A DNA stretch of 64,000 nucleotides, taken from IMG/VR virus record IMGVR_UViG_3300000868_000017. One strand, written 5' to 3'. Under the pieces are notes generated by a model. It was given only the letters and a program-made list of their open reading frames with translations. It did no database searches and had not been told where the DNA came from. This document shows positions 2,970 to 58,088 of the stretch, piece after piece; positions within the stretch are counted from its first letter, which is position 1; the number at the start of each line of letters is the position of its first letter. The position numbers and the translations under genes are program-made. This DNA is from an uncultured virus (IMG/VR IMGVR_UViG_3300000868_000017) (lineage: Duplodnaviria > Heunggongvirae > Uroviricota > Caudoviricetes > Thumleimavirales > Hafunaviridae).

Positions 2970-4133
2970 GTGATGAGTCCGAAGATTATCACAGAGGACG
3001 AATATAGATTCTCTCTCGAATATGATGATGTTGACGTTAAGAAGTGGGCATACTACAGAAACTTCGATTTAGACGACGACATTCTCATTCTGGATTTAGC
3101 TATAAAGGACGAATACGGCGACTCAAATAGTCGATATATTGTTCAAAATCTCAGTCATATCGCTAATAGCATCGAGTCATTCCTTCGTGCAGATGGCGTC
3201 GTAATCGTATTTATGGGTGACGAGAGTATAGTTAGAGCGACTATCCGTGGCGAGGATTACAATATAAGCAATCATGCGCTCTTGTGGCAATTGGGAATTA
3301 CCTTGTCATGGGGGGTTCAAAGCCACAAATGCGTTTCAAAAGTAGACGAAGATGTTGTTGAGGAATATATCAGCTTAGCGAACGAGGCGGAATACTACAT
3401 CGACTACGACGGTGCTGAGTTTGATGATGTAGAAGTCCTAATGACCCGTGGAGAACACGGCTCCGTATGTGGGGCGGCTTTCCAGTCGTTCGATGGTTCA
3501 GGAAATGGCACATTAGTTGTTCTCCCCCGACCAACTGATCTTGCTACAAGACCTGAAAATTGGTTCAGTACGACTCTTTCGACGGCATATCCGTACTTCC
3601 CCAAATATCTCAAAGACAGTATTGAGTCCGACGACTCAAATGAGGACGAAAATATACCGGACGAAATCCCTGAGATTGAATCCGATACCAAAGTTCTACG
3701 CATTTGCGAGAGATTTCCCAAAGTTGCTCAACAACTCCAAGATCGTCATAGCAATAGGAGTACCATCAGCGTCAGCGACGAGCATGATGTTCAAGACCTT
3801 CTTCATGCCCTTTTGCGAGTTGAGTTCGATGATGTGAGGGCTGAGGAGTATTCTCCGAGCCACGGTGGGAGTGCTTCGAGAATTGATTTTCTACTGAAAG
3901 AAGAACAGCTCGGAATCGAAGTGAAATACGCAAATAGTAGTAATGCTGAGAAGGAACTCAAAAACCAGCTCTCGGAGGATAAAGAGCATTACAAAGCGCA
4001 CCCCGATTGTGAGAAACTAATCTGCTTCATCTATGACCCCGAATTTGCTCTCGAAAATCCAAGTGGATTTGAGAAGGATTTGTCCAGCCCGTCCGGAACG
4101 CTCGAAACTACTGTCGTTGTTTCTCCAAAGTGA
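2970..4133 (+). CDS. Protein with C-terminal REase_DpnII-MboI-like nuclease domain
   Basis: E-x-DVQDLLHALL...EE-x-x-P...SRIDFLLK...IEVK...QL-x-x-D-x-x-x-Y-x-x-HP-x-C...FIYDP signature. Confidence 0.8.
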   Translation: MMSPKIITEDEYRFSLEYDDVDVKKWAYYRNFDLDDDILILDLAIKDEYGDSNSRYIVQNLSHIANSIESFLRADGVVIVFMGDESIVRATIRGEDYNISNHALLWQLGITLSWGVQSHKCVSKVDEDVVEEYISLANEAEYYIDYDGAEFDDVEVLMTRGEHGSVCGAAFQSFDGSGNGTLVVLPRPTDLATRPENWFSTTLSTAYPYFPKYLKDSIESDDSNEDENIPDEIPEIESDTKVLRICERFPKVAQQLQDRHSNRSTISVSDEHDVQDLLHALLRVEFDDVRAEEYSPSHGGSASRIDFLLKEEQLGIEVKYANSSNAEKELKNQLSEDKEHYKAHPDCEKLICFIYDPEFALENPSGFEKDLSSPSGTLETTVVVSPK

Positions 4134-5005: not shown

Positions 5006-5055
5006 TTACTCCGGTTGATGCAACCTTTTTAGTGTGCGACTGTCTCGGGTTTGTT

Positions 5056-8957: not shown

Positions 8958-9503
8958 ATGAGTGATGTTCAAATAGTAAACGTCGTCGGGTCAGGTGCGG
9001 TTAGCTCTGAGTTCGACTTAGAAGAACTCAGTTCCGAGATCGGTAGCGAAGCCGAATACGACCCTGAGAATTATCCGGGGATGTATCTCCGCTTCGAGGA
9101 GAAGCCCACCATCACAGTCTACCGAACGGGCAAGTTCATCATCTACGGAGCTGACAACGTTGATGAAATCTACGCCGCGCGGGACTTCCTCCTTTCACAA
9201 CTTGCCGACCTCGGGGCAATTGAATCACCCGAAGATACGGGGTTCTCGATACAGAACGTCGTGTGTACGGGGAAACTTGAGAGCGAGCAAAACCTCAACG
9301 CGGTCGCCATCCAGTTGGGATTAGACCGGACTGAGTACGAACCTGAGCAGTTTCCCGGTCTGATTTACAGACCAGAGAAACACGATTGCGTTATTCTGAT
9401 TTTCGGGAGTGGGAAGGTCGTATTAACTGGGTGTAAGAGTTCAGATGCCGCACAGAGAGCATTAGATGGGCTAATCTCTACGATTCAGGACTTGGGCGTA
9501 TAA
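8958..9503 (+). CDS. tbp: TATA-box binding protein
   Basis: Two TBP repeats: NVV...YDPENYPGMYLR...YRTGK and NVV...YEPEQFPGLIYR...IFGSGK. Confidence 0.95.
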   Translation: MSDVQIVNVVGSGAVSSEFDLEELSSEIGSEAEYDPENYPGMYLRFEEKPTITVYRTGKFIIYGADNVDEIYAARDFLLSQLADLGAIESPEDTGFSIQNVVCTGKLESEQNLNAVAIQLGLDRTEYEPEQFPGLIYRPEKHDCVILIFGSGKVVLTGCKSSDAAQRALDGLISTIQDLGV

Positions 9504-35860: not shown

Positions 35861-37552
35861 TTAGAACTTCCGTCGCCGCCTTCCAGTTGAACGGCGTTTG
35901 TGTCTTGAGCTGTAACCGCGTTCCTTGCGTCCGTGCGAGAGAGCATACCCGCGACCGCCGGAGGACTGCCCGCTAATCTTCAAGCCTGCCCATCCGTCGC
36001 GTTCCTGTGGTTCTTCCACCTGAACCGAAGGGGTCACGTCCTCTCGCTGTTGGAGATTCCGTGACTTGTCGGCCTTGAAGTTCGGCGGGAACGCCGCGAG
36101 AACCGTCGCCATAGCGAGGTCGTCCTTCCCCTCCGGGGCGTGTTCCTTCCCGGTGAACTTCGGCTTCTGCCAATCCTCCTTCTGCTGTTTGACAATCGCG
36201 CCGAGCTGTTCACGCAGAGGTTCGTCCTCGGGGAGCCACACGAGGTCGTTGTGAAGGGCGTAATTCATGTTGCCCATCATCTTCTCCACCTTGTCCTTCG
36301 CGGAGAAATTGAAGCCCGTGTAGGCCCGTCCGATACGCCGCCGAACTTCGTCGTGGAACCCCTGCCCCACGCCCGTCATGTCCATCACGACGTTGGAAAC
36401 GCCCATAGCGTGATACACCTGAGAGATACGCTCGGCAACCGCCGCAGGGTTCTGCCGACTCGATGGAGTGATTCCCGCCTGCGAAAGCACGCGGTCGTTC
36501 ACGATCTCCTTGTACCGGCAGTACCGACGCGGGCCTTCATGCTCGAAGACCGCGAGAGCCGTGTCGTCGGAGTTGAACCCAATATCCACTCCCATGACCA
36601 GCGTGTTCGTCGTCTCGTACCGCCTGAGGCCGTAGGAGTAATCCTCAGCGGCCCCCCGACCCATTGCGACCTCTATGGTGGGCATAGAGAAGAAGCGGTA
36701 CTCGTCGCTCACAGGGCGGCACAGATACTCTTGTGCGAAGCCGTTGGGGTCGCTGGCTCGCTGAGTTTCCGCCGCCATCAAGTCAAAGTCGCCCCGGACG
36801 GGTTCCACGTCCTGCTCGAACAGGGAAACGTCCGTCTCGATCTCGTCCGCGTTCTTGAACGTCGGCTGTTTCAGCGCGAGAATCCCGAAGTCGTTGCGAC
36901 CGTCCGGCGTCCCCCGCTCGTTGGCCTGCATGAACTCATCGTTCGACGCCTTCGGAGTGGACACCTGAACCATCTGACTCGAACCGAGACTGATGGTGGG
37001 CAGGTACGCATCGAGGGTGGCGCTCTGGTCTTCGAGGAAAGCCATCTCGTCAATAAAGACCGTCTTCGGCGGGTCTTCACCACGAGCGGAGTCCGGGTCG
37101 CCCGTGTACGCCTTGATACGCGACCCGTTCGAGAGAACAATCTCGTCCTGATTGTCCTTTTCCAGCTCAATGTCGATCTTCGCGTTCTTGATTAGCGTCT
37201 TAATGTCGCTAATCCGCGAGTTCGACTGCCCCTTGGTCTTCGAGAGAATGGGATAGAACGTGTCCGGCTTGAGAAGCGCCTCAAGCAGAATACAAATCCC
37301 AATTACGTAGGAAACGCCGATACGACGGCCCTTGTAGATGTTCAGAATCTTCGAGCCGCCGTAGAAGTAGGCGTGCATAATCCGGGGCTGGTACGGTCGA
37401 AAGAGCGTTAGCGGCTCAATTTCGTCCGTATCCAGATTCTTCGCCCGGAGAATGTCCTCTGCGAGAAGATCGGGCCGTCCATCCCACCTCTCAAGCAATG
37501 CGTCAACGTCAGCATCGCTCTCGGAGGCGAACTCCTCAGCTATTTCCTGCAT
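35861..37552 (-). CDS. terL: Terminase large subunit
   Basis: PYQ, KGRRIGVS (Walker A), ARG, FIDEMAF (Walker B), STP, QEY-x-C, GVDIG, DMTGVG, DD-x-x-x-A. Confidence 0.95.
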   Translation of the reverse strand: MQEIAEEFASESDADVDALLERWDGRPDLLAEDILRAKNLDTDEIEPLTLFRPYQPRIMHAYFYGGSKILNIYKGRRIGVSYVIGICILLEALLKPDTFYPILSKTKGQSNSRISDIKTLIKNAKIDIELEKDNQDEIVLSNGSRIKAYTGDPDSARGEDPPKTVFIDEMAFLEDQSATLDAYLPTISLGSSQMVQVSTPKASNDEFMQANERGTPDGRNDFGILALKQPTFKNADEIETDVSLFEQDVEPVRGDFDLMAAETQRASDPNGFAQEYLCRPVSDEYRFFSMPTIEVAMGRGAAEDYSYGLRRYETTNTLVMGVDIGFNSDDTALAVFEHEGPRRYCRYKEIVNDRVLSQAGITPSSRQNPAAVAERISQVYHAMGVSNVVMDMTGVGQGFHDEVRRRIGRAYTGFNFSAKDKVEKMMGNMNYALHNDLVWLPEDEPLREQLGAIVKQQKEDWQKPKFTGKEHAPEGKDDLAMATVLAAFPPNFKADKSRNLQQREDVTPSVQVEEPQERDGWAGLKISGQSSGGRGYALSHGRKERGYSSRHKRRSTGRRRRKF

Positions 37553-37558
37553 GAAAAA

Positions 37559-37765
37559 CTACTGAATGTTGTCTAAATTGACGTAAGAATCGCCGTCCAG
37601 CGCCTCAATCCACGCATACCAGTTGCGGGAGTCCTCGATGAGATACCGAGGCGGCTCCACACCGGAGTCACCAAACTCCAATCCGACGGCTTCGCCGTCC
37701 AACGGAGTATTAGTTCGGGGGTATGCTTCCGATTTAGACACCTTCACCGGCTCATAGGGGTTCAT
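37559..37765 (-). CDS. Hypothetical protein
   Basis: 68-aa ORF in the late operon. Confidence 0.6.
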   Translation of the reverse strand: MNPYEPVKVSKSEAYPRTNTPLDGEAVGLEFGDSGVEPPRYLIEDSRNWYAWIEALDGDSYVNLDNIQ

Positions 37766-37800
37766 AAAGAGAGATTCGCCGCATCGAGTCGGGGAGAACG

Positions 37801-37995
37801 CTACTGAACCGTGATCGTGATCGAATCGCCGCAGATTTCGATTTTCTCCACGTCAGCGGGGTCAACATCCGTAGAACCACGGATATGACCGTCCAGAACC
37901 GACGCGAGGGGGAGTGAAAGGCCAAATTCGACCGTATCGTACTCGAAATCCGGCCCAGAAAGGCCGCAGTCGCAGTTTTCGCAAGGCTGAGTCAC
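37801..37995 (-). CDS. Small CxxC protein
   Basis: CENC motif; operon context. Confidence 0.55.
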   Translation of the reverse strand: MTQPCENCDCGLSGPDFEYDTVEFGLSLPLASVLDGHIRGSTDVDPADVEKIEICGDSITITVQ

Positions 37996-38092
37996 GATTC
38001 AGTCCTCGAAGGTGAGGTTTTCCTCGAAATTCGCTTCTTCAGTCTCCTCTCGGACGAGCTTGCCGTCCTCAGAGACACTAAACTTAGAGTTT

Positions 38093-38209
38093 TCAGACGT
38101 TTCCATTGACTTGAGTCGCCCCCTCGATGCGGAAATCCCCAAGAAGAACGCCACAGGTGGAGCAATTCCCGCCTTTGGGGGCGTGATAACCGCAGTTATA
38201 GCAATTCAT
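38093..38209 (-). CDS. Zn-finger microprotein
   Basis: MNCYNCG...CSTCG, 38 aa. Confidence 0.55.
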   Translation of the reverse strand: MNCYNCGYHAPKGGNCSTCGVLLGDFRIEGATQVNGNV

Positions 38210-38216
38210 AGTTGAT

Positions 38217-38480
38217 TCACCGTCGCACCAGCAGGGTAGAACCGCCCACCCTTCGCCCCCGGTTACGCCGGGGAATCGCACATTGATCGCTGAGAACCTG
38301 CTCGGAGGGCCTGAAATTGTAGTGAAGCCCGCCGACCATACCGATTACCGGCTCGCCAAGGTAGAATGCGAGATCGTCGTACAGATCAACGTCCATATGA
38401 GCCTCCTGCTCGCTCCACGTCTGAACGGTCGCGTCCCGAACAAGCGCGTAGCCAGCGGAGAATGGTTCAAGTTCCGCCAT
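38217..38480 (-). CDS. Hypothetical protein (possibly DUF5802-like)
   Basis: LEPFSAGY N-terminus; overlaps the end of the terS candidate. Confidence 0.55.
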   Translation of the reverse strand: MAELEPFSAGYALVRDATVQTWSEQEAHMDVDLYDDLAFYLGEPVIGMVGGLHYNFRPSEQVLSDQCAIPRRNRGRRVGGSTLLVRR

Positions 38481-39246
38481 CTTCGTCCTCGAATATGTCG
38501 TCGTCGGGGTCGAACTCCCGGTCGGAGTTGTCCCCACCGAGAACAGCCTCCGCCGCGACAGCGGCGAGCTGTTCCGTTGCGCTGGCGGCCTTCTCGTCCG
38601 TGTCCATCTTCGCCGCCTCCTTCGGCGTCAGCCCAAGTTCCTTCATAATGTCCAGAATGAGCTTCTGCTTGAGGCGGAGGTCTTCGGAGAGGCCGTGCGC
38701 GTCTGTGATAACGCGAAGGTTCCCGTTCTCGTCGTACACTTCCTGCCTGTCCATCTCACCCTCGTCGAGGATGTATTCGGACGACCGGGCTACTCGAACA
38801 CGAGCAATCGCCGCCTGCTCAAGCAGATCGTGGCGAGCGGGGTCTTCCTCCTTGGACGGCCAGCCATAAGCGTCCGCCCACGACATTACGAAGTCGTAGA
38901 GCCGCTGGTCGTCCTCGGTGAAAACCTCCTCTAAGTGTTCGTCAGTAGCGTACATTCCGTGTTTGAGTGCCGCGAGAAGTTCGAGATTGTCGTTGTTGCC
39001 GTTCGCGTTCTGATTCGCGCCGTGAAATCGGCACGAGTGAGCGTGCCCACCCTCATCGAGGCGGGCTACTCGGTTACTGCAATATCGTGTTGACCCGTCA
39101 TAGTCCTCGGGCTGTTTCCCGATTCGTGTGAGGCAGTAAGCAGTATCGAAAGGAATCCCCTTCTCGGCCTTCGGTGTCTGAAGATACTCGTGGCGTAACT
39201 CCGCGAGTTCCTGCACCGTGTAGCCGGTTACTTCTGCCTGAGCCAT
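38467..39246 (-). CDS. Putative terminase small subunit
   Basis: First late gene; C...C...CRFHG and KHGMYA motifs; ELGLTP tail. Confidence 0.65.
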   Translation of the reverse strand: MAQAEVTGYTVQELAELRHEYLQTPKAEKGIPFDTAYCLTRIGKQPEDYDGSTRYCSNRVARLDEGGHAHSCRFHGANQNANGNNDNLELLAALKHGMYATDEHLEEVFTEDDQRLYDFVMSWADAYGWPSKEEDPARHDLLEQAAIARVRVARSSEYILDEGEMDRQEVYDENGNLRVITDAHGLSEDLRLKQKLILDIMKELGLTPKEAAKMDTDEKAASATEQLAAVAAEAVLGGDNSDREFDPDDDIFEDEDGGT

Positions 39247-39454
39247 TGTGTTGTACGTAAAGTGATTCACCGCATCGAGTCGTTTTCCTCTAACTCGGGT
39301 TAGAAAGAGTAGAAACTCAGGTAGAGAAAGGAAAGTACCTGAGTCAAAACCGACGTAAAACAGAACCAGAGAGAAGAATCTGAGTCACCAGCTCAGAATC
39401 CAGAGAAGAAAGCCATCGGTAGGAGGTCTTCGTCGTCGCTTCACTCCTACACTC

Positions 39455-39479
39455 CTATTAATGGTAAAGGGTTTATATA
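39455..39479 (-). promoter_or_regulatory. Putative late promoter (class B), copy 1
   Basis: TATATAAACCCTTTACCATTAATAG upstream of the packaging/head operon. Confidence 0.75.
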
Positions 39480-39553
39480 GGAAGGGGGGTGTTCAAATAC
39501 TACTTGTCAACTAAGAGGATAGATAAACGGACAGTATCTGATCACGATTGGAG

Positions 39554-40156
39554 TTATGTAGACTGTGGTTCCATCATATCCATCATTTCATTCCAAGCGC
39601 TCTCGCGATCAGAAACAGTAAACAATTCGGGTATTCGTGCGGTGTTCTGCGCTTCTTCGACCTTCTTTCGTGCCCGAGCCGCGTGACTACGGACGGTTCC
39701 AATCTCTATATCGAGTGCCCCTGAAATTATCTCCTCGTTTGTCTGTCCTTCCTTCATGAGATACACCAAAAATTGCTTTTTCGTGAGTGAAGACGACTCA
39801 AATAATTCTCGGTACAAGTCACAGTAATTGTCGTAGAACTCTTGTGCGAACTCTCTTGCAATTGAGATCAGCCTTGGCGGGTGAAATCCGCTGACCTTAT
39901 CGGGAGTCTTGCTCGGTACAAGAACATATCCGTCTGTGTCAGGTACGGTTCCTTCTGTCGGTGTAAACGCATCAGTCTTGAAAGATGATTCGCGCAACAC
40001 CTCTAATTTATCATCCTTGTCGTCGTGATCTTCCCAATCGTCGACGGTATATTCAAGCGCCATCTTGGAAATATTACTGTTTACTTTGGGGTGTCCATCT
40101 TGGAGAAGAATCACCAAGTCCTTCGGAGTGAGCGTATCTGATTCGTGTTCTACCAT
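39554..40156 (-). CDS. Protein with C-terminal sigma-r4/LuxR-like HTH
   Basis: LT-x-KQ...EEI-x-x-x-L-x-I-x-x-GTVRSH-x-x-RAR-x-K; AT-richer than flanks. Confidence 0.7.
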   Translation of the reverse strand: MVEHESDTLTPKDLVILLQDGHPKVNSNISKMALEYTVDDWEDHDDKDDKLEVLRESSFKTDAFTPTEGTVPDTDGYVLVPSKTPDKVSGFHPPRLISIAREFAQEFYDNYCDLYRELFESSSLTKKQFLVYLMKEGQTNEEIISGALDIEIGTVRSHAARARKKVEEAQNTARIPELFTVSDRESAWNEMMDMMEPQST

Positions 40157-40360
40157 TCTATTACAATATACGTAATAGCAGGCACTTATATGTTGGGTGA
40201 GATTCCGTTCTCATAGTGCCTATTCAGCGACCAGCAATACCGAGCGGAGATCTGGTTGAAAACTCAGATACTCTTCACAGATTTTCTATGCGTCTGAATC
40301 GCACACTAAGAAGAAGTTTGAGCGATAAGTCTTAATACCACGACTCTCTCCTAAACAGGT

Positions 40361-40807
40361 ATGCCTGACCCGGTACACAGTCACCATGTTGCGGTTGATG
40401 AAGGACATGATCTGCTTAGCCGGGGAGCGCACGACACGAGAGGGCCGGGTTCTCTCACCGTGTCAGTAATCAACGAACTATCTGCCCTCCTCGACGTAGA
40501 CCCTACGAAAGAGCCAATTTATCTGGAAGACTGCATCGACGCGGATTGGCTCGACCAGCTCCCCAACCGAGATACCGTCCACGGATGCAATAACACCGGA
40601 GTCGCCTTCCACTACGGAGACTACAAGGTGTTCTGCTGTTCCTGCGGCAAGATCGCCGTGTATGGCGACCTCGAAATGCACGAGAAAGGCGAGATGGTGA
40701 CTCCCCACTCGATGAGTAACATCACACCAGAGAGAACCGAAGTAGAAATCCCCGATCATATCCGACACAAGAGGCCGTCCACCAGAGGCTCACCACCCGC
40801 CGACTAA
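40361..40807 (+). CDS. HalOD1 output-domain protein
   Basis: SL-x-x-x-VI-x-x-LS-x-x-x-x-VDP...L-x-D-x-ID-x-D-x-LD-x-L...V-x-F-x-Y pattern. Confidence 0.7.
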   Translation: MPDPVHSHHVAVDEGHDLLSRGAHDTRGPGSLTVSVINELSALLDVDPTKEPIYLEDCIDADWLDQLPNRDTVHGCNNTGVAFHYGDYKVFCCSCGKIAVYGDLEMHEKGEMVTPHSMSNITPERTEVEIPDHIRHKRPSTRGSPPAD

Positions 40808-40999
40808 TCCCAGTCGTGTTCTCCCAAGAGAAAGGAGAACTCCTCTCCAAGAAACACGTAGTGGCCGTCCACACCAGCTCGTCCCCGCCACCCGACCTGA
40901 GAAGCAAAAACCGATTTTTCTAACCTCAGAGGTGAAAATTCTGAGAGCTACTTACTAAAGCTCGTGTGCGGAATGTGCCTTAATGTTCTAACCGCCTGT

Positions 41000-41490
41000 T
41001 CGTCCCTCGGCCCGGTCGTTGGGGCTTGTACCTGCTGATATGTGCGTTGTTGGCCGCCCTACGCGCGGGCGGCGTGCCTGCCTGTTCGTCTCCGGTCGGC
41101 CCCCGCCCCGTCCCTACTGGGGCCGGTCGGCCCGTCCCGTCCGTCCCGTCCGTCCCGGTCGGCCCGTCCCTCTCGATCTCACTCACGGCCCGCCCCGTCC
41201 CGTCCGTCCCGTCCCGTCTCTCGGGCCTACTGGGGCCGTCTCACGCCCCGCGCGGGCCGTCTCTCCCCCTCTCGGGCCGTCCATACGGGCCGTTATCCGG
41301 TATCTCCCCGCCCCTGAAAACGCCGCGTTCGGCAAGTACGGGGGCCGTCCCGTCCGTCTCTCCTATGTCCGTCCGTCTCCCGTCCCGTCCCGCGCGTTCC
41401 GTCTCTCGCGTTCCGGCCCGCGTTCTCCCTGTTTGTACGTTGTGGGCCGTCTCCCGTCCGTCCGTGGGTGTTTCGGCGCTTTCGCCGTCT
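41000..41490. repeat. Strand-asymmetric CCGTC/CCCGT-rich repeat block
   Basis: Roughly two dozen CCGTC units and six GGGCCGT; very few A on the + strand. Confidence 0.85.
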
Positions 41491-41759
41491 CATTTAATAA
41501 ATCTCTTTGCCGGTATTGTTTACCCGCTATATTACCACATCGAGGCTTGTATTCCCCGCGTTCGACAATCTCGAACTTTTACCTTTATATGTATAATCAC
41601 TACTAAAATCTATCAGGTTACAATACTTGCCGGTTATTTTTATTATGTCGGTGAAACTATATCCGCCTATTGTCCCGTCTACCTTCTGTCTACGCTGGAT
41701 TAATAGTATATAATGATTATACACCCGTCACTTATATATACCCCCCGGATGCTTGGTAT

Positions 41760-43165
41760 AGATGTCGCTCGGTGAAAGCGGCCCGCCCCGGATTGATGTT
41801 ATCCGGGGCGGTCGGCCCCCTGAAATGGGCCGGGGGATATACTCCCCGGCGTTAAAGGCCCGGAAACCCCGGAAAACCGGCTTAAGTCCCGGTATCGGGG
41901 GCGTTGCCATATGCGCCCCCCGTTGGAGGTTTTCGTTAGCACGTTGCCACCTTCAAACGGAATTACCGCTAATCTCCCCTCGAACGGTCGGGGGCGGGTA
42001 AGTAGGCCAGTAGGTAGAATCTCCCCGTTTCGGCCCCTGTTTCGGGCCGACCGGAGAGACGGAACTACGGGCCGAATTGACCCTTACGAAATGTAGGAGA
42101 CGGGGCCGGAAACGGCCCGTCTTTCACGGTGAAACGGCCCTTAGGGGCCGAAAACCCCGGCGTGGAAGCCGGGGCCGGGATTCTTAGTAAGGTCGTTAGT
42201 ACGGAAACGTCGGATTAACCGACAATTCCCCGAGAGACGGGGAGATAACCGGGAAACGGCCCGAAACGGCCCGAAACCACATAGGCCCGTCTTAGTACGG
42301 GGGAGATTTACCGGCCCTACGGGGCCGGGGCGGGAAAGAGGGGGCCGGTCGGACGAAACGATATGTGATCGAGAAATCCGGCCCGGCCCCTGATACGACA
42401 AAGGAAAGGCCCCGAATGCGCCCGGAGATAACCTCAAAGGTAGCATAGTTCGGCCCCGAACGCCTTTCCCGGTGTTACGTTTGAAGTACGGCCCGAACGG
42501 GACGGCCCGCGAAAGCGGCCCCGTCCCGGTATGTAGGCCCGAAACCGGAAAGCGGCTTTCCGGGGAGTATTTTCAGGTGATAGGGGGAGTATGGCCCGGA
42601 CAAAGAGCGTCCCTTAGGGCAAAGAGTGACGAAAATAGACACATCGAGCGATTAACGTCTCGAAACTGTCGAACCAGATGTATTAGATACATCTATGGAA
42701 ACGTGAATCCCACCCACTTTCGGATGCGGTTACGGTTAAAACAATAGGCGCTTAGCCTATGGAACGAAAGTCTATGCCATAAACAGGTTCGTAGGGAGAA
42801 GTACGTAGTAGTCAAGAGCGAATGCTCATAGCGATTAACGCGAAAGACTCTTTGAGATTTGAAACTCCGCATAGCGAGCAGATCGCACAGCGTAGCGTAT
42901 AGCAATCGGCTTTGAGGGGTAAGTGTCACACTTAATTCGCTCGTTCGTATGTTCGGCCCGTCCCGTAAGGGACGGGGAAGGATAGACGTAAAGGTTCCAG
43001 CGACAGCCAACCCCGAATTGACGGGGGCTTGAGGCTTTACGGGGCTAAGCCCCGTGCTAAGCAACCACGACTTGAGTGAGTGAGAGTCATCTCTCTCCTT
43101 GAGTCGGAATGGGGGGTTTGGTGCTTCCCCTTCGGAAAGTAGCACTAAGTGACACCCAACGAACT
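41760..43165 (+). ncRNA. Candidate large structured non-coding RNA or very long leader
   Basis: No credible ORF; more than 15 GC-rich hairpins, several with GAAA, GTAA, cTACGg or cTTCGg loops; TTATATAT at 41732. Confidence 0.5.
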
Positions 43166-44059
43166 ATGTCTGTGAAAGTCAACAGCGACGGCGACTTCGT
43201 TGAGAATACGGTGAGCAAGATCGGCGCTAACCCTGTTAGTGACCTCTACGACCTTCTCCAGAAGGACGACTACTCCGTGGTGAGCCTCGCTCACGAGGTT
43301 CGCAAAGCGTTCGGAGAGGATTCTGTGAAGAAGGGCGGCGAGAGTGAAATCGCTAAGTGGTGTGAAGCGCCCCGGAATGTGAACCTGATCGAGCCGTGCG
43401 AGGCTAACGATAGCGACGGCTCTCTCGGGAGAGCGTTCTACCTTTCCACCGACTACACCGCCAACGACTACAACGCCTTTAGTGGCAAGTACGACTCCTT
43501 AAAGGAGGAAAACGGCGGGTTCGGTGTGAAGCCACTTGCCGAAGCGGATGAGTTCCAGCGTGAGCTACTGCTCTCGGAGGAAATCATCGAGGCAAGTGAC
43601 ACCGTGATGGTTCCCATCAACAGCGACGGGGAGCCGATTGTCCCGGTAGTGGCAAGTGAAGGTCGTCAAGAGGCGGCGGAAGGCTTCGAGGTCGGGAGTG
43701 TCCCGACTTACGAGGAAGCCGAGGAACGCCTCAAGACCCTTCTGAGTGACTACTTCGGAGAAGTCGAAGTCGATGAGACGGCGGAATCGAACGATAAGAG
43801 CAACAGCGGCGGCGACGGCGAGAGTGACACCGGCCTCGATCTTCCCGAGGAACTATTCGACCCTACGGAAGTGAAGGGTATCGGGAACAAGTACGGTGAG
43901 GCTCTGCTGGTTCACATCGTAGAGAATCAGATCAGTCTCAACTGGGAAGACTACGAGGGACACGTCGAACTTCCCGAGCCGGAGGTTCCCGACGTGAGTG
44001 AGATGAGCCAGCGCGAGAAGGACGCCCTTCTTCAGCAGTTGCTCGAAAACTCCGAGTAA
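43166..44059 (+). CDS. First early protein, acidic, with HhH-like motif
   Basis: EVKGIGNKY motif; ATG downstream of GTGACACC. Confidence 0.75.
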   Translation: MSVKVNSDGDFVENTVSKIGANPVSDLYDLLQKDDYSVVSLAHEVRKAFGEDSVKKGGESEIAKWCEAPRNVNLIEPCEANDSDGSLGRAFYLSTDYTANDYNAFSGKYDSLKEENGGFGVKPLAEADEFQRELLLSEEIIEASDTVMVPINSDGEPIVPVVASEGRQEAAEGFEVGSVPTYEEAEERLKTLLSDYFGEVEVDETAESNDKSNSGGDGESDTGLDLPEELFDPTEVKGIGNKYGEALLVHIVENQISLNWEDYEGHVELPEPEVPDVSEMSQREKDALLQQLLENSE

Positions 44060-44088
44060 GGCGCAAAGACTCAAAGACGCTTCAATAA

Positions 44089-44160
44089 TCCTTAGTGGCG
44101 ACACCGGGGTTCGACTCCCCGGAAGGGCCTCGGTAGCAACGGCTACCACGAGTGACACCT
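44089..44160 (+). ncRNA. Anticodon-less tRNA-like element, copy 1
   Basis: TCCTT/AAGGG stem, AGTGGCG linker, CCGGGG-TTCGACT-CCCCGG arm, GGTAGC/GCTACC hairpin. Confidence 0.7.
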
Positions 44161-44298
44161 ATGGAACGACGAGAGCGATACCCACGACGTAGCGGCGGCG
44201 CTGGCAGTCTCACGAACCCCCTTAGCGACGAGGATTATCGACGTGAGATGGACAAGTTAGCGGCGCTCAACGCGGCGGATAGTGAGGAGAGCGAGTAA
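44161..44298 (+). CDS. Small hypothetical protein (45 aa)
   Basis: ATG right after the RNA element; TAATG coupling to the next gene. Confidence 0.55.
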   Translation: MERRERYPRRSGGAGSLTNPLSDEDYRREMDKLAALNAADSEESE

Positions 44299-44627
44299 TG
44301 TTCTCCCCGAGGCTCGGGACGGTACGAACCTCCCAACGGGAGGAAGAAAACCAATGGAGCCACCGCGCTGACCTCAAGATCGACCAGAGGCATCGAGCCT
44401 TCGGAGCGGTAGTTGAGGAACGACGCGAGGGAGAACTGCTCGAAGGAGAGGAACTTGCTGAGTTTATCGGATGGACTCCTGACCCGAGTGAGATTCATCC
44501 CCACCACGAGAAAACGTCGGAGCCTGAGGAATACGAAGGCTCCGGCCTGACCGACGACGAGATCGAGGCGAAGAAGAAGGCCGAGAAGTACCGGCGGCGC
44601 TACTCCGAATACCACGACAGCGAGTGA
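44298..44627 (+). CDS. Hypothetical protein
   Basis: Coupled acidic ORF. Confidence 0.65.
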   Translation: MFSPRLGTVRTSQREEENQWSHRADLKIDQRHRAFGAVVEERREGELLEGEELAEFIGWTPDPSEIHPHHEKTSEPEEYEGSGLTDDEIEAKKKAEKYRRRYSEYHDSE

Positions 44628-44983
44628 CAACTATGAACGAGACACCGACTTTCAGCCGAGACGCAAGGAACTACGAATACGACCCTCTTTCTCACGGAGG
44701 GAACCGGCGGCGGGAGCGACGGATTCCGATGAGTGCGATTGACCAAGCGATTGAGAATGGTGAGGCACACCTCGGTCGCAAAGGACGGGTTCTCTTAGAG
44801 ACTCGATGGAGCGGCCAGCTCATCACGGTAGTCATCGACCCGAGGGATGAGTCGATCATCACGACCTACCGAGGGACGGGGAAGAAGCTCAAGAGCCTTC
44901 AGAAGCAGGAGCAACGACGCAAAGAACGGCAGAAGAAGATTCGAGAGGGCCGGGGAGCGGCATATACCGGCGCTTGGATGTAA
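44624..44983 (+). CDS. DUF4258-like (RelE-fold) basic protein
   Basis: SH-x-x-x-R-x-x-ER-x-I...I-x-x-AI-x-x-G...VV...IIT-x-Y pattern. Confidence 0.6.
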   Translation: MTTMNETPTFSRDARNYEYDPLSHGGNRRRERRIPMSAIDQAIENGEAHLGRKGRVLLETRWSGQLITVVIDPRDESIITTYRGTGKKLKSLQKQEQRRKERQKKIREGRGAAYTGAWM

Positions 44984-45195
44984 ACAGCAAAGACTTAATA
45001 CAGCAACGTTGTCTCTTAGAGTGAGGAACTTTTCGGGGACAACGATTCGATGCGAGTAACCCCAAATGAAACGACCACATTCCCTGAAACCGGACTGTAA
45101 CTGCTGGTACTGTGACTTAGAACGAGCCAAGCGAGCCGATCATCGACGAGGTTACAATCGGCTCTAAAGACTCAAGTAAGCAACTCTAATCCTTT

Positions 45196-45268
45196 GCTCC
45201 GAGTGGCGGAAACTACGGTTCGACTCCGTAGCGGAGCCTCTGGTAGTGAAAACTACCGGGTGACACCG
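45196..45268 (+). ncRNA. Anticodon-less tRNA-like element, copy 2
   Basis: GCTCCG/CGGAGC stem, AGTGGCG linker, CTACGG-TTCGACT-CCGTAG arm, GGTAGT-GAAA-ACTACC hairpin. Confidence 0.72.
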
Positions 45269-45562
45269 ATGGCAGTAGCAGAAAAGACACCAACGACAGA
45301 TCGACGCATCGACCTAAGCGAAGAAGACCTCGAAAAGAAGATCGGAGACTACGCTTACCGACTCCGCAAGGCTTCGGTGGCGAGGTACTACGAGGAACCC
45401 CAATCGTGGGGAGGGATTGACGTAATCCCGAGTGAGGAAGAATACCTGATTCTCGGCATCGACGGGGAGTGGCGAGAGCCGATTCCCCGAGAGGAACAGG
45501 CTATCGAGCAACTTGTGGCGCTGTTCGACTCGGCGCTGGAAAAGGCCCTGAGCGACCTTTAG
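45269..45562 (+). CDS. Hypothetical protein
   Basis: ATG right after the RNA element (MAVAEK...). Confidence 0.65.
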   Translation: MAVAEKTPTTDRRIDLSEEDLEKKIGDYAYRLRKASVARYYEEPQSWGGIDVIPSEEEYLILGIDGEWREPIPREEQAIEQLVALFDSALEKALSDL

Positions 45563-45568
45563 AGAACG

Positions 45569-46891
45569 ATGTACGACAACTACTACCCCGACTTCCACGA
45601 CCCGGAGATGAACGACGACGCAAGTTACGACGACCGCGACGAACCCGGCTTCGATATGGACGAGCTGGACGGCTTCAACAACCCGATGGAGAAGGTGGCT
45701 CACCTATGAGCAACGCCGTAGAAATCGACCGGCTGGCGTTAGCGACTCTTGCCGATGAAGTGAGTGAGGCGCTGAAGAACTGTGGCCGGGATTATCGAGA
45801 GACGGCGGCTGGCTACCAGCTTGCTGAGGCTCTTGATGAGGCATACTCGGCCCTCGATTACGAACCAGACTATGAGCGGTGATATTCTTGCCCAACGAAT
45901 CCGCCGAGAGCGATACCGAGAGTGGAAGCGACGACGAGAGCAACGCGACTCCCTTCCTGAAGATCGACCCGAGGGATGGCGGGAGCGACGACGACGAACC
46001 ACCAGCGGCGGGAGCCGTGATGGTTTCGAGGAAACCGAGCGGCCCCAAGCTGAGCTTGGCTCCTACGGCGGAACCGAACCACGAAGCGAAGCCTGAGGTT
46101 GTGACAATATGAACGAGTACCACCTAATCGACCCGACAGAACCATACTTCGATGTTGGAAAAACCGGCGTTCAGTTCGATATTATCGAGTCCTTCCCCAC
46201 GAAGGAAGCGGCGGAACACGTCCTCGAAGCAAACCACGGACTCCAAATCATCAAGGGATGAGTCTCGAAAAGCACCTCATAGACCGGCTGAAGGAGGACT
46301 TGGACGTATTCGCCGCTGAGTATGCGGTGGATGAAGACGATGACCTCGATGCGATTTTCGCGGCGACAGACCTTCTCGAAGAAGACCTCGATGGTCGCTG
46401 GATTATCTACGAGAACTTCACCGCTGACACCGAGGGTTATCCCCGTGCTGTGGTGGAGATCGAGGTGTTCACCGATGCGAAGGAATCGGAGTTCGAGCAA
46501 GCGGAAGCGGTCTACCAAGCAGGATACGCATAATGGATATTCTGGAAATCGCGGTTCAAGAAGTGATGGCAGAGGACGACGACTACGTGAAGCCCGGCAC
46601 GGTCTACGAGACGCCGAACGGCCACTACATCGTGGAGTGAGAATGTCAGTTATTGGATTCACCGACCACCCGACGAGAGAGAATCGCTACGAGATCATAG
46701 TCACCGCCGAATCGGACGTGGATGCCGTCGTAGCGTTCAACGAGGCGTTTGACGACGACGAGAACTACACCGAAGCCTACGACGTTCACCAATACGACTC
46801 CGAGACATTTGGTGTGTTCTTCTGGTCGGAAGACCCGATAGACACCGACGAAGAACCGCTGGTTCTCCCCATCGAGGAGGTCGAAGCATAA
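45569..46891 (+). other. Run of short coupled early ORFs (45569-45709, 45706-45882, 45879-46112, 46109-46261, 46258-46533, 46643-46891)
   Basis: Acidic ORFs chained by ATGA/TAATG overlaps; no recognisable families. Confidence 0.6.
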
Positions 46892-47559
46892 TGACGTGGG
46901 ACGATTACCCCGAGGACTGGATGGGGAACCCGGACGGTCGGGACTACCACTACCGATTCCACGCCAACGACGAAGAAGCGTGGCGGAAACTTCGGAAGGC
47001 CCGCTGGATGGGGCGCTGGTTCGAGCTGTACCCGAGGGATATGAAGCACCTTCGGGTGAAGTTGCCCCACGTCACCCTGAAGACCTACGATCATAAGGGC
47101 CACATCGAGGGGATGGCGACGTATTCCTGCTCCCCTGATTGGCAGGTCGTTCCCTACTCCCGAGGGAAGTGGGAGATGAAGCACGGCTCCCGTGGCGGCT
47201 CGAAGCTCCGATGTGAGGAATACACCGGAGATACGTGGGGAACGGTGACTGTCGAGTTCACCGTCGAGGCAACGCCGGGAGAGATTAAGGACGCTTACGA
47301 GAACGGCGTCAACGAGGCCGAGATCGAGACTTCCATCCGAAATGGGATTCGTTGGGCCGTCGACGAGCGTATCGACGAACTCCGCGAGGAGGAATGGCAC
47401 TACCAGAACGAGGTCTGTGACCACGACCACGTAGTGAAGGTCAAAGGTCGGAGCCACCCGTTCGCTTACTGCGAGGACTGTCAGAAGGATTGGGAGGACG
47501 AGATGGACTTCCAAGAGGATTACCTGAGCGACGAGCTGACTCTGGTTGGTTCGGTATAA
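46891..47559 (+). CDS. Hypothetical protein with C-terminal C-x-H...CxxC
   Basis: 222-aa coupled ORF. Confidence 0.7.
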   Translation: MTWDDYPEDWMGNPDGRDYHYRFHANDEEAWRKLRKARWMGRWFELYPRDMKHLRVKLPHVTLKTYDHKGHIEGMATYSCSPDWQVVPYSRGKWEMKHGSRGGSKLRCEEYTGDTWGTVTVEFTVEATPGEIKDAYENGVNEAEIETSIRNGIRWAVDERIDELREEEWHYQNEVCDHDHVVKVKGRSHPFAYCEDCQKDWEDEMDFQEDYLSDELTLVGSV

Positions 47560-47577
47560 AGACTTAGAGACATAATA

Positions 47578-47946
47578 ATGAGTGTTAGACCCACCGACGA
47601 CAACGGAGAGGAGTTAATCGGAATCGAACGACGGGAAGCCCTCGTGGAAATGTGGGGAGTGGATACCGAGGTGTTCGAGCCACCCCACGCTTCGGACGAA
47701 AACCCCTTCCGGTCGATGCCTTCGGGGATTCACTTCGAGGGATACCACCACGACGACTACTGCCCGGAGTGTGGTCGGGGAGGGCGGGAGAAGGGCGTCC
47801 TGAGCGACTACACCGGAGGTATCAACGGCGGCTATATGACGGTCTTCCTCTGCGAAGGCTGTCTCTCGGTGTGGCTCAAGTCCTTCGGCTGGTCGGCTCA
47901 GCGAGAGTACCCCGAGAACCACATCTTCCACCCAAAGAACCGATGA
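47578..47946 (+). CDS. Zn-finger protein
   Basis: CPECG...CEGC. Confidence 0.65.
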   Translation: MSVRPTDDNGEELIGIERREALVEMWGVDTEVFEPPHASDENPFRSMPSGIHFEGYHHDDYCPECGRGGREKGVLSDYTGGINGGYMTVFLCEGCLSVWLKSFGWSAQREYPENHIFHPKNR

Positions 47947-48212
47947 GTGTCACCCATACCAAGACCCACGACGTGATAGCCCGACCGAAGAACGACTCCC
48001 GTGGTGGACATATGTTCCACCTCAAGCCGAACAAGCTCCCTCTCGAAACGCGGCGGGAAGTCGCATCGAGGCTCGAAGAAGCCGGAGTGTTCGCTAAGGA
48101 CTATCCTCACGAGAAGGTCGCGGAGGTCGTTATCGATTCCACGGTTCAAGGACAAGATCGGAGCAAGCCGTTCCGAACGAGCGAGATACAGGAGTTGACT
48201 CTGGATGTGTGA
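47943..48212 (+). CDS. Hypothetical protein
   Basis: ATGA coupling with the upstream gene. Confidence 0.6.
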   Translation: MSVTHTKTHDVIARPKNDSRGGHMFHLKPNKLPLETRREVASRLEEAGVFAKDYPHEKVAEVVIDSTVQGQDRSKPFRTSEIQELTLDV

Positions 48213-48669
48213 CCACGAGAACCGAACGTGGCTCTCCGGTCGGGGTTATCAGGCGAATTGGCGGTGTAAGGACTGCGGCGAGAGGGTTCGGGGCGGCTAC
48301 GATCACGACGAAGGCCGGTTCATCGAGTTCCGAGGTGGAACGTGGCCTTAGAGTGTGAGAGATGTGGCGGCCCTCGGTTGAACGGAACGCCGGTCACTCG
48401 GGATAAGCAGAATGGCGGTTGGCGAATCGCCTTCCCGAGTGACAGCGACAAGCGGTACTACTGCCGGAGCTGTGCGAAGAAGGTCACTCAGTAATGGAAC
48501 CACACGACGACTACCCCGAGAACTGTCCTGCGTGTGACGCGGATGTTGAGGAACGCTCCTACGGAGTGCGTTGCTCGAACTTCCGGTGTCTCTGGAAACG
48601 GTGGTGGCAGGACAAGCTCCCGATGTTCAGCGCAAAGACTCACGAACAGCACTACGCGGAGACTCACTA

Positions 48670-48858
48670 ATGGTTGACTTTGAACACTACCACGGCGGCG
48701 AGATGTGTCACCACGGACGAACAGTTGCGACCGACGACGACCCCTGCCCCTACGAAGGGAGCAAGATCGCGGAGGACGACACCGGACGATTCATCCTCTG
48801 TGGACAGCACCATCAGCGGCTCGTCGGTGGAATGGCGGCGCGGCAAATGACCCGGTAA
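48670..48858 (+). CDS. Small Cys/His protein
   Basis: C...C...C-x-x-H pattern. Confidence 0.5.
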   Translation: MVDFEHYHGGEMCHHGRTVATDDDPCPYEGSKIAEDDTGRFILCGQHHQRLVGGMAARQMTR

Positions 48859-48860
48859 CG

Positions 48861-49715
48861 ATGCTTCCTACTACAATAGAGACAAAGGCCGGAGAGTCGC
48901 TGGTAAACACCCTCGAAGCGAACAGCATCAGCCCGCCCCGGCTTGAACCGAATGACCCGGTTGACCCGGTGTGGAAGGCCCGGAAGCTCACCGACGCCGA
49001 CGACCCCCTTCCGCTCTACGACGAGTTCTGGATTCGGGAGTGGTTCAACGGTAAGAGTAAGACCCTCTACCGGGAGAAGCCCGACGCCGAGTTCAGCAAC
49101 GAAGACGACCCTACGGTGTACGAGACAGAGTTCGGACGCATCGAGCAGTTCTACACTACCTCGTTCAACAAGGTCGATGCCTACTACCGGCGGTTCGTCC
49201 TGAACCCGGCGACCATCAAGCAAACAATCGAGGACGGGTGGAAGTCGGACACTCCCTACGGAGTGATGGCAGAGCTGAACGAGAACGTGGCGAAGATTCT
49301 CACGGTCGGTGACTTGGAGGCCCACCTCAACGAGATCGACAGCCTCGATGCGTTGATGGAACCGGAGAACCGCGAAGTCCTCCACCTCCACGAGAAGCGT
49401 CGGAGCCTCTTGAACAAGATGTGGGTGTCCCACCACGGCGGCGACCCGGAGAAGACCCACCTATGGGGTTCCCTCACGAAAGAGACGCCGACGACCTTCC
49501 AGATAGAACAGTTCCCTCAGGGGTTCTTCGTGATTCCCCGGCTCTGGAACGAACACGTCTGCCGAGTCGTGGACGACGCCCTTCAGGAGCAAGACCTCGG
49601 GAAGTTCAGTCTCGCTTGGCGGGGCTTCATCGTGAAGCCGGAGAACTTCAGCGAAGTGGCCGAGCTGATCGGGCCGCTCTACGTGGACACTCCGGGGGTT
49701 GAAGTGTGGAACTGA
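48861..49715 (+). CDS. Hypothetical protein
   Basis: 284-aa ORF with viral codon usage. Confidence 0.75.
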   Translation: MLPTTIETKAGESLVNTLEANSISPPRLEPNDPVDPVWKARKLTDADDPLPLYDEFWIREWFNGKSKTLYREKPDAEFSNEDDPTVYETEFGRIEQFYTTSFNKVDAYYRRFVLNPATIKQTIEDGWKSDTPYGVMAELNENVAKILTVGDLEAHLNEIDSLDALMEPENREVLHLHEKRRSLLNKMWVSHHGGDPEKTHLWGSLTKETPTTFQIEQFPQGFFVIPRLWNEHVCRVVDDALQEQDLGKFSLAWRGFIVKPENFSEVAELIGPLYVDTPGVEVWN

Positions 49716-49782
49716 GGGCGATTCTGCGAGACTTCTTCAAGCGACGAGGAGGGAGCGGTGGAGCAGTAATTCTGGTGTGATA

Positions 49783-50709
49783 ATGAGCAACAAATACGAT
49801 TCCTTCGAGGCATACATCCGAGAGGTACAGGCTACCGCAAAGCGATACTACGACTACTCCCGAGAGGGAGGAGACGAGATACGAACCTCGGCGTATAACC
49901 CCGACGAGATTCCCGAGGACGTTCCCTTGTGGGCTATCGCTGAGGCCGCTGTGGAGAACCACGACCTGATTCAGTATTACCAGCGATGCGTGATCTACCA
50001 CGCCGAGGAAGGGTTCTACAACGAAGGCGGGGAACGGTACTACAACGACCCGGACGACCAGCAGGAGGCTGTTCAACAGCTTGCCCTCGCCGGGTTCTAC
50101 AACGACGTAATCACGAAGCTCCGCTTCATCGAGGAAACTCGTGATGATTTGGGTGAAGCGATAAACCTGCTCGAAGGGCCGATCTACGGTAAGGGAGTTC
50201 GCTTCGAGTACGACTACTACATCCACCTTTCCTCGAAGGAGCCGGTGACGTACACTCTCGAATGTCTCCGTGGAGATGAGTGGCGAGTGTACGACCCGGA
50301 CGGTGAGCCGTTCGAGGTAATCAGTCCACGAGTCGCGGTGCGGAACGCCGACCGGGAGATTCCCGAGTATTCTCTCAAGCTGTTCCTCGATAACGTCTGC
50401 GCTCGCCGGGAACGAGATCGTGAGATAACGACATTCAACAACGCAACAGAGGAGGAGAAGCTGGAGGAGATAGCCCGACAGGGCGACCGAGCGCACGTCC
50501 TGTGGGAATTGGCGAGTGATGGACGAGACTTCTGTGGAATCGACTTCGTAGCACGGGAGTTGGATATGGAAGACGAATCCCTCGAAGCGGTCGCTAAGCG
50601 ATTCGTGGAAGATGTGAACTGCTCTCTCGAAGAAAACCCCGACCCTCCGAGCTGGCAACACTTGGAAGCGGTGTACGGAGATCGAGCGGACGAAATTCTC
50701 AGCGAGTAA
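49783..50709 (+). CDS. Hypothetical protein
   Basis: 308-aa acidic ORF. Confidence 0.75.
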   Translation: MSNKYDSFEAYIREVQATAKRYYDYSREGGDEIRTSAYNPDEIPEDVPLWAIAEAAVENHDLIQYYQRCVIYHAEEGFYNEGGERYYNDPDDQQEAVQQLALAGFYNDVITKLRFIEETRDDLGEAINLLEGPIYGKGVRFEYDYYIHLSSKEPVTYTLECLRGDEWRVYDPDGEPFEVISPRVAVRNADREIPEYSLKLFLDNVCARRERDREITTFNNATEEEKLEEIARQGDRAHVLWELASDGRDFCGIDFVARELDMEDESLEAVAKRFVEDVNCSLEENPDPPSWQHLEAVYGDRADEILSE

Positions 50710-51048: not shown

Positions 51049-51349
51049 ACCGACGAACATCCTGCGGTGTCCCCCGGTAGTATGGAAGAAAATATTGAGA
51101 AGATCGAGCAAGCCGACTACGATTACTTCTACTCCATTCGGAGGAAGGCGTGTTGGCGACGGCGTGGAAAGTCGAAACCTCGCCGCGATGTATCAGAGAT
51201 AATCAACATCGAGCGGCGGTACTGGCAAGAGTAATGGCGAAACGGGGAGCGCCCCCGTCGTCGGGAACTGGTCGTCCCGGCCTATGATGAGCTGACCAAA
51301 AGCGGTAAAGACTTATAGATACTATTCCGAGTCTTAGAGGTTACAGAAA

Positions 51350-57909: not shown

Positions 57910-57935
57910 CAAGCACCCGCCCCTCATTTTCTCTT

Positions 57936-58008
57936 GCCGAGGTAGCACAACTGGTAGTGCGACGGATTGTTACTCCGTAGGTTGCAGGTTCGAGTCCTGC
58001 CTTCGGCG
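57936..58008 (+). tRNA. tRNA-Asn(GTT)
   Basis: 73-nt cloverleaf: GCCGAGG/CTTCGGC, GCAC/GTGC D arm, ACGGA-TTGTTAC-TCCGT, GCAGG-TTCGAGT-CCTGC, discriminator G. Confidence 0.93.
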
Positions 58009-58088
58009 TTTCGCTACGACGCAAACACAATGTCGTAGCCTGAGCTGAACCGACTGACGAGCAAACCAGAGAAACCTATACAGCAATA

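Follow-up and report, generated by a model that had tools for sequence, protein, structure and literature searches.

The left end of the genomes of the HF1/HF2-type haloviruses most likely gives rise to a new structured RNA of about 1.3-1.4 kilobases (kb), folded into two domains and transcribed from the first early promoter. The DNA analysed is a stretch of 64,000 nucleotides (nt) from an uncultured virus (IMG/VR record IMGVR_UViG_3300000868_000017), called the window here, in which positions 41760-43165 belong to the left end and lie, free of genes, between the terminal repeat and the start of the first early gene. Whatever its role, a large structured RNA is probably encoded on the + strand of these positions. 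A first-pass annotation made from the letters of the window had proposed that they encode a large structured RNA, or else a leader of exceptional length, produced as the first early transcript from the + strand, and covariation, the lack of a match in Rfam and contigs from RNA libraries support that reading. The window virus is an HF1/HF2-like haloarchaeal myovirus of the genus Haloferacalesvirus, family Hafunaviridae, and all 41 phage records that match the stretch and its flanks belong to the HF1/HF2 group.

The conserved fold carries most of the weight. Window positions 41729-43165 were aligned with 15 relatives (alignment A1: 16 sequences, 15 of them distinct, 1482 columns, 87% mean column identity), and on the + strand of A1 RNAalifold finds 388 pairs at -464.55 kcal/mol. 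Over these pairs 97.9% of cells are paired in the 15 distinct rows, against 91.7±0.2% in shuffles, and the covariation score is 0.197, against 0.088 in controls; related sequences can outscore shuffles on both measures, and counts of pairs are more robust. Compensatory changes, with both sides of the pair altered, occur in 104 of the 388 pairs, compared with 49.7±3.8 in shuffles, and none of 500 shuffles reaches 104. When the partners are slid by 1-3 columns, a control that retains the relatedness of the sequences, only 12-30 pairs are compensatory. Within the RNA body, 125 of the 174 variable pairs are still paired in all 16 sequences. A second alignment covering the 3′ domain, with 18 sequences that include the divergent HJTV-2 clade and Hardygib1, shows compensatory changes in 34 of 127 pairs. 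Covariation was among the checks put forward with the earlier reading, and it proved strong, long-range helices included.

The minimal body of the structured RNA spans 41762-43067 on the + strand, to which all features of the fold given below also refer, and is supported by the RNA-library contigs, the identity of the relatives and the 388 consensus pairs. Its 5′ domain (41819-42577) is multibranched and is closed by an invariant helix, 41819-41823 with 42573-42577. A second closing helix (41857-41860 with 42536-42539) spans 682 nt and has two compensatory pairs. Further long-range helices lie inside it. The helix joining 41946-41959 to 42478-42492, over 546 nt, has arms that pair as CAA/TTG, CCA/TGG and ACG/CGT (A1 columns 228-230 with 778-780), that joining 41972-41985 to 42295-42307, over 335 nt, is compensatory in 7 of 12 pairs, and that joining 41966-41970 to 42329-42333, over 367 nt, also covaries. 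At closer range, helix 41996-42013/42065-42083 has seven compensatory pairs, helix 41861-41872/41923-41935 encloses two covarying hairpins, and hairpin 42498-42528 has compensatory changes in 8 of its 12 pairs beneath an invariant GAAA loop (42511-42514). Nested helices that covary over distances of 335-680 nt rule out protein-binding palindromes and cruciforms and speak for a folded single strand.

The 3′ domain (about 42583-43130) is more conserved in sequence, and its inner helices covary. Its predicted closing helices are 42583-42597/43114-43130, 42611-42620/42909-42918 and 42621-42627/42847-42853. Hairpin 42947-42987 has an invariant GUAA loop (42965-42968) and four compensatory pairs, the small hairpin 42999-43008 has a loop that is mostly GNRA by its counts in A1, and hairpin 43034-43062 has an invariant UAA loop and four compensatory pairs; the contig of RNA run X13 (see below) stops just beyond the last of these. 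A variable 19-bp hairpin follows at 43065-43112, defined by covariation and the alignments, and is itself followed by GGGGGGTTTGG, which is GGTTTTCT in VOLN27B and the HJTV-2 clade. The T run behind it is only TTT, and TTTTCT in VOLN27B and that clade. The archaeal signal for intrinsic termination is a T run at the 3′ end of the transcript, and this hairpin is a possible leaky terminator or processing site. Another hairpin, at 42545-42572 (+), is found within the RNA where the two domains meet; TATTTT comes after it, it scored as terminator-like, and the X13 contig reads through it. Closest to the first gene, the 20 nt before its ATG (43146-43165, +) are invariant in 16 of 16 sequences of A1 and in 18 of 18 of the 3′ alignment.

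The fold is also partly modular. About 42096-42310 is replaced in HCTV-7 and in one metagenome virus, and a hairpin near 42864-42903 is replaced in four viruses. The HJTV-2 clade keeps the 3′ domain and has a longer, largely different 5′ part.

Individual stems and loops can be followed in the same alignments. All 15 stems picked out by the first-pass annotation reappear in the consensus folds, and 14 of them have at least one compensatory double change in a 19-sequence alignment. The last stem (43117-43149) has no compensatory pair there; by eye, in the 18-sequence alignment, it changes from GTGCT/AGCAC to CGGCT/AGCCG in VOLN27B and the HJTV-2 clade. The annotation had also taken the tetraloops as a sign of the + strand, and this argument stood for the GNRA loops. 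The GAAA loop at 42511 and the GUAA loop at 42965 hold in all 16 sequences while their stems change, and the loop at 43002 varies mostly within GNRA (GUAA in nine sequences, GGAA in four, GAAA in two and GACA in one). It fell for the two UNCG loops, as neither the cUACGg loop at 42318 nor the cUUCGg loop near 43131 is kept as UNCG across the 16 sequences. The loop at 42107 has no fixed tetraloop among the aligned relatives. The unpaired positions of the consensus fold are 38.1% A, and unpaired positions rich in A are a feature of known large RNAs. The recurring motif GTGACACC that had been remarked upon is not enriched; AAGTGACACC, allowing at most one mismatch, has 5 matches where 3.83 are expected, and 29 of 100 shuffles reach 5.

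Single-sequence folding was run in sub-windows of 150 nt with 60 dinucleotide shuffles each. Over 41700-42450 the z-scores lie between about -0.6 and -3.9 on the + strand and between -0.1 and -5.3 on the - strand, and pass -2.4 in 5 of 10 sub-windows on the + strand and 7 of 10 on the - strand. Over 42900-43124 they are -2.7 and -4.5 on the + strand, against -1.7 and -2.3 on the - strand. The density of hairpins claimed at first is real by this measure; it is also uneven, and folding of single sequences does not separate the strands.

The TATA-like box seen by the first-pass annotation at 41732 is real and is conserved in 16 of 16 sequences. It occupies 41732-41739 (+) and reads TTATATAT here and TTTATAT in most relatives, with T5, T7, A8, T9 and T11 of A1 invariant. 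This box is the putative promoter of the RNA. Promoters of HF2 have an AT motif at -19 to -26 (PMC8707807, section 3.2; here and below, published work is cited for the portions available to us). Applied to the box, this spacing of 19-26 nt predicts a transcription start at about 41758-41764 (+), which is where homology begins, the BLAST matches of nearly all relatives starting sharply at 41762. The box precedes this conserved block by about 26 nt.

Very probably the + strand is the functional one. We favor it because the TATA box lies upstream, the unpaired positions are rich in A, the loops read as GNRA, the energy of the consensus fold is lower, and there is a modest excess of G:U pairs. Among the 213 pairs predicted on both strands, 15 sites have G:U as a minority pair and 9 have A:C, the counterpart of G:U on the - strand. 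Positions that extend helices give G:U at 13 sites against A:C at 8, compared with 2261 against 2295 in random column pairs.

The stretch does not code for protein. The first-pass annotation had described 41760-43165 as free of open reading frames (ORFs), and no ORF is conserved among 19 homologues. Stop-free frames, followed in six frames through these homologues, vary in length, phase and place and leave no shared frame. Indels do not come in threes, as 257 of the 370 gap runs in the alignment are of 1 nt, and column conservation has no 3-base period (0.843/0.830/0.844). A missed protein-coding early gene was ruled out by the absence of a kept frame and of third-position bias and by the mostly 1-nt indels, and a 150-amino-acid ORF on the - strand (42693-43145) was rejected as a hidden gene since its frame is not kept in homologues. 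In HRTV-24 (512-2117, L025) and similar records of the HJTV-2 clade, four hypothetical coding sequences (CDSs) are annotated on both strands over the homologous stretch. Because no frame is conserved in the homologues, the four CDSs in these newer records are probably not genes.

The stretch is also present in RNA libraries. Public runs listed for it number 24; 20 contain some or all of it, 5 are recorded as RNA, and four were mapped on 36000-50000 (the RNA runs X13, X16 and X17, and X18). All three of the RNA-recorded runs examined have contigs on the stretch. X13 has one contig of 1292 nt covering 41776-43067 at a word depth of 19.2, X16 has four contigs inside 41876-42921, and X17 has one at 42368-42943. 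The rest of 36000-50000 is uncovered in these three runs, including the terminal repeat and the first CDS, and we do not use this as evidence on transcription or on the 3′ end. In X18, labelled as RNA only by a guess, pieces are dispersed over the stretch, and two of these lie on the region or extend across it. Published work on HF2 maps immediate-early transcription to about 0-5 kb (PMC7230728). At the HF2 left end, major Northern transcripts are unexplained by known promoters (PMC8707807, section 3.4), and reverse-transcription PCR (RT-PCR) in the same study covered the predicted coding region.

We propose the following course of events. Host RNA polymerase would start at about 41758-41764, guided by the TATA box at 41732-41739, the first promoter inward of the terminal repeat. 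The transcript, read rightward, would fold into two multibranched domains, 41819-42577 and about 42583-43130, a fold that compensatory base changes appear to have preserved in evolution. The folded part, at least 41776-43067, would then build up as a stable RNA, and some transcripts would read through, or be cut at, the hairpin 43065-43112 to yield the mRNA of the first early gene. The structured RNA may in this way persist as a stable product and also form the leader of the early mRNA. For its role we prefer a trans-acting scaffold or decoy RNA, which would work in the immediate-early or the persistent phase, by analogy with the large ornate phage RNAs GOLLD and ROOL (bioRxiv 10.1101/2024.12.08.627333). 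More tentatively, and with a limited chance of being right, we suggest an RNA of 1.3 kb in two domains, made before any viral protein, which would be the first of the large ornate kind from an archaeal virus. It would act alone as a self-assembling particle, a ribozyme or a decoy against host defence or RNA turnover, and would be the main viral product to persist in carrier-state or lysogenic cells.

Several observations weigh against this reading. The sequence conservation of the stretch is no higher than the neutral level: mean column conservation is 0.839, against 0.861 at third codon positions of the next gene, and the primary sequence overall is therefore under no unusual constraint. All sequences come from one virus genus, and independent events are far fewer than the cells counted. 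No compensatory change occurs in the closing helices of the 3′ domain (0 of 15, 0 of 9 and 0 of 7 pairs), which makes the fold model provisional there, and at least one hairpin (42135-42150, with compensatory changes of its own) is placed differently in the local and the global fold. As single sequences, 42450-42900 folds no better than shuffles, with z near zero, and 41700-42450 gives equal z-scores on both strands. The excess of G:U over A:C is modest, at 39 against 35 sites with the divergent clade included. Strand, start and end cannot be read from the library contigs, and DNA can be present in RNA libraries. The interval from the end of the fold (43067) to the ATG has no AT-rich promoter-like box or clear terminator, and in HF2 the RT-PCR transcript F1 joins HF2 1855-1868, about window 43052-43066, to the first CDS (PMC8707807 Tables S2 and S4). 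A late antisense transcript of HF2, R52, reaches the same positions (PMC8707807 Table S4).

The link to the first gene bears on the main rival, in which the fold works in cis as the 5′ leader of the early operon. Made from the same promoter, it would control read-through, processing or translation, for example as a conditional terminator holding early genes silent in the carrier or proviral state. Such a leader would fit the lack of a second promoter and of a clear terminator before the ATG, as well as the invariant 20 nt ahead of it; the variable hairpin with its short T run (43065-43122) could be a leaky stop. The F1 primer at 1855-1868 lies in the 3′ hairpin region (PMC8707807 Tables S2 and S4) and was the most upstream productive forward primer on cDNA primed past the first CDS, so at least the last hairpins are on one RNA with the first gene. 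A primer at 1712-1727 is also in the list of that study, its use in RT-PCR being unstated, and the lack of a productive F1 reaction above 1855-1868 may mean that late in infection the mRNA is discontinuous with the upstream fold. Two multibranched domains in 1.3 kb, with compensatory changes in over 100 pairs, also go far beyond the needs of any known attenuator. We regard a leader as possible, if doubtful, and it is compatible with an independent RNA, with which it may coexist. It is unlikely that the functional molecule is instead an RNA of the - strand, an antisense or leftward transcript. Hairpins of the first half fold equally well on that strand, the consensus fold there still has 340 pairs, 93 of them compensatory, and R52 is a long reverse transcript that reaches the same end in HF2 (PMC8707807). 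However, the consensus energy is 43 kcal/mol worse (-421 against -464 kcal/mol), and G:U outnumbers A:C even at the sites of the - strand's own fold (29 against 25). Unpaired sites would be 38% U on that strand, loops would read UUUC, UUAC and UYNC rather than GNRA, and no leftward TATA-like box is found near 43100-43400.

The surroundings of the stretch invite two further explanations. Cumulative GC skew has its turning point at 41-42 kb, an AT-rich region adjoins the RNA, and the + strand of the 5′ domain is G-rich with runs of G (GC skew +0.11), all of which could suit an RNA that is real and serves as a replication primer or forms an R-loop at an origin beside the AT-rich spacer. We consider this improbable: the turn in skew is equally well explained by the two gene arms, which both read inward from the ends, nothing marks an origin, and a full-length contig in an RNA library is unlike a processed primer. 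Even less credence goes to pairing at the level of DNA, as a fold of single-stranded DNA or as protein sites for replication, concatemer cutting, packaging or genome ejection. The stretch does lie about 500 nt from the terminal repeat and at the turn in skew, the AT-rich spacer sits between mirror-image C-rich and G-rich flanks with GGCCCG and GGGACGG motifs, and pairing is preserved about equally on both strands. Yet binding-site palindromes or cruciforms cannot account for the helices that covary over 335-680 nt, nor do the A-rich loops and conserved GNRA loops favor DNA. The conserved block starts at the start site expected past a conserved TATA box, and the stretch yields contigs in RNA-labelled libraries. 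An origin or packaging region made of the GGCCCG and GGGACGG motifs around an AT-rich center had been entertained as a candidate and was dropped once helices 335-680 nt apart were seen to covary.

We found no earlier description of such an RNA. A full-text search of the literature, whose scope was without Tang 2002, Tang 2004, Nuttall 1995 and Sencilo 2013, which may describe left-end transcripts, returned no large non-coding RNA of a halovirus or archaeal virus. The available portions of PMC8707807, PMC7230728, PMC8651126, PMC8727067 (on VOLN27B) and PMC4284463 make no mention of an RNA or structure at the left end. The stretch also belongs to no known Rfam family, a point that the first-pass annotation had left to a model search. 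A permissive scan of 41400-43400 on both strands with Rfam 15 (4227 models) gave no match at E≤1, and a scan of the whole window at gathering thresholds gave only tRNA (57936-58008) and Hammerhead_II (51235-51300). These models presumably include GOLLD, ROOL, OLE, HEARO, raiA, group I and II introns, RNase P and SRP RNA.

The closest likeness is to two large ornate RNAs found in bacteriophages and prophages, GOLLD and ROOL, whose function is unknown. Like them, the halovirus RNA is large, highly structured and non-coding, has many covarying helices and comes from a tailed virus of prokaryotes. Unlike them, it is about twice as long, belongs to a virus with an archaeal host, lacks a match in Rfam and has a fixed place beside the genome end, ahead of the first early gene. 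The pRNA of phi29, of about 170 nt, is transcribed from an early promoter on a linear genome, at its left end, and belongs to the packaging motor of a phage with protein-primed DNA. The two share a structured viral RNA and an early promoter at the left end, putative in the halovirus, but the halovirus has terminal repeats and a T4-type large terminase, and there is no match in sequence or model. In phage P4, the CI immunity RNA of less than 100 nt is cut from the early leader and acts by pairing within that same leader. A candidate likeness lies in a stable RNA from the untranslated leader of an early operon in a temperate element; the halovirus RNA, at 1.3-1.4 kb, differs greatly in size. ColE1 RNA II and the transcripts of the T7 primary origin prime DNA synthesis, and they resemble our case as structured or G-rich transcripts beside an AT-rich region, whereas the halovirus RNA is longer and more elaborate. 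The repeat arrays that flank the T7 terminal repeat and the injection stop region of T5 act as DNA. They too are gene-free stretches, rich in repeats or hairpins, beside a direct terminal repeat, but pairing in the halovirus is long-range and covarying, and contigs occur in RNA-labelled libraries.

The RNA is present throughout the genus. Coverage of the stretch is at least 80%, at 80-90% identity, in 32 of the 41 matching phage records, and identity, which is 77-90% among the core members of the genus, falls to 63% in the HJTV-2 clade. The same 41 phage records have both the RNA and the first gene, as do 7 viral contigs and 4 metagenome contigs. In species-representative genomes a protein-guided scan gave 317 pattern matches, none of which was confirmed, and a conserved 25-nt word had no match in those genomes and matched only the same 7 contigs in the viral collection. 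HRTV-27 and HRTV-25 belong to other genera of the family, and small ORFs are densely packed right up to the corresponding end of their genomes. Near the same end, Mincapviruses share a conserved stretch of about 1.5 kb (HRTV-7 1170-2667, L033; also L036-L039), with 92-100% identity across 8 records. The records of HRTV-7 and HSTV-2 annotate no features on it, newer records have three to five small hypothetical CDSs, and the stretch shows no similarity to the HF1/HF2-type RNA. Support for pairing in the Mincapvirus stretch is weak, with 12 compensatory and 38 broken pairs of 500 in five sequences.

The use of HF1 and HF2 as model haloviruses dates back to the 1990s, and in the records the first 1.9 kb or so of their genomes has been left as a gap without annotation. 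If our reading is true, the stretch would be a rare addition to the few very large structured non-coding RNAs in prokaryotic biology, and the first from an archaeal virus as far as we have found. These viruses are in culture, so the RNA can be tested now, and Haloferax, one of the host genera, has a genetic system (PMC9229481). The more than 100 covarying pairs in the alignment offer a guide for structure probing, cryo-electron microscopy and the design of mutants.

The terminal direct repeat is present in a single copy at 40954-41260, its extent being approximate, and the linear records of relatives start or stop at 40954. From these mapped ends and the repeats annotated at the ends of relatives it follows that the window holds the virus as a circularised genome or a provirus, with the repeat in one copy. 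The HF2 record has a terminal direct repeat of 306 bp (repeat_region, 1-306) and its first CDS from 1970; in the VOLN27B record the repeat measures 315 bp and the first CDS lies 2140 nt from the end. The left flank holds late genes on the - strand (large terminase of T4 type, tail sheath, baseplate J), and the right flank early genes on the + strand. The first early CDS (43166-44059, +) is a homologue of HrrHF2_005; its product is acidic and matches no Pfam family, and conservation by codon position is 0.949/0.961/0.861. Between the terminal repeat and the TATA box lies an AT-rich spacer (41480-41731, 39-42% G+C), recognized by composition, conservation profile and alignment, with a conserved block at 41529-41603. 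Directly upstream of the box, 41604-41728 is an AT-rich insertion of about 125 nt that is missing in most relatives and partly common to VOLN27B and the HJTV-2 clade.

Some minor features of the window may be added. Tandem repeats of 9 nt, of the CGTCCGTCC type, occur at 41129-41220 within the terminal repeat, and short tandem repeats are confined to that place. The + strand of 41000-41480 is strongly C- and T-rich and mirrors the G- and A-rich right side, and the - strand of 41025-41249 folds below the energy of shuffles (z -2.1 and -3.3). Farther away, a variable region contains a homologue of the TATA-binding protein (8958-9503, +; Pfam TBP, E 1.7e-46) beside restriction-modification genes, namely an N6_N4 methylase (201-1136), a DpnII/MboI-type endonuclease (2970-4133) and an Eco57I-like enzyme (5032-8940). 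A type II hammerhead ribozyme (Hammerhead_II) lies at 51235-51300 (+), with 38.4 bits against a gathering score of 37, and a hammerhead is a conserved feature of HF1-group viruses (PMC7230728). Finally, a tRNA-Asn (GTT) at 57935-58009 (+), with 72 bits in Rfam, corresponds to the viral tRNA-Asn of HF2 (PMC8707807).

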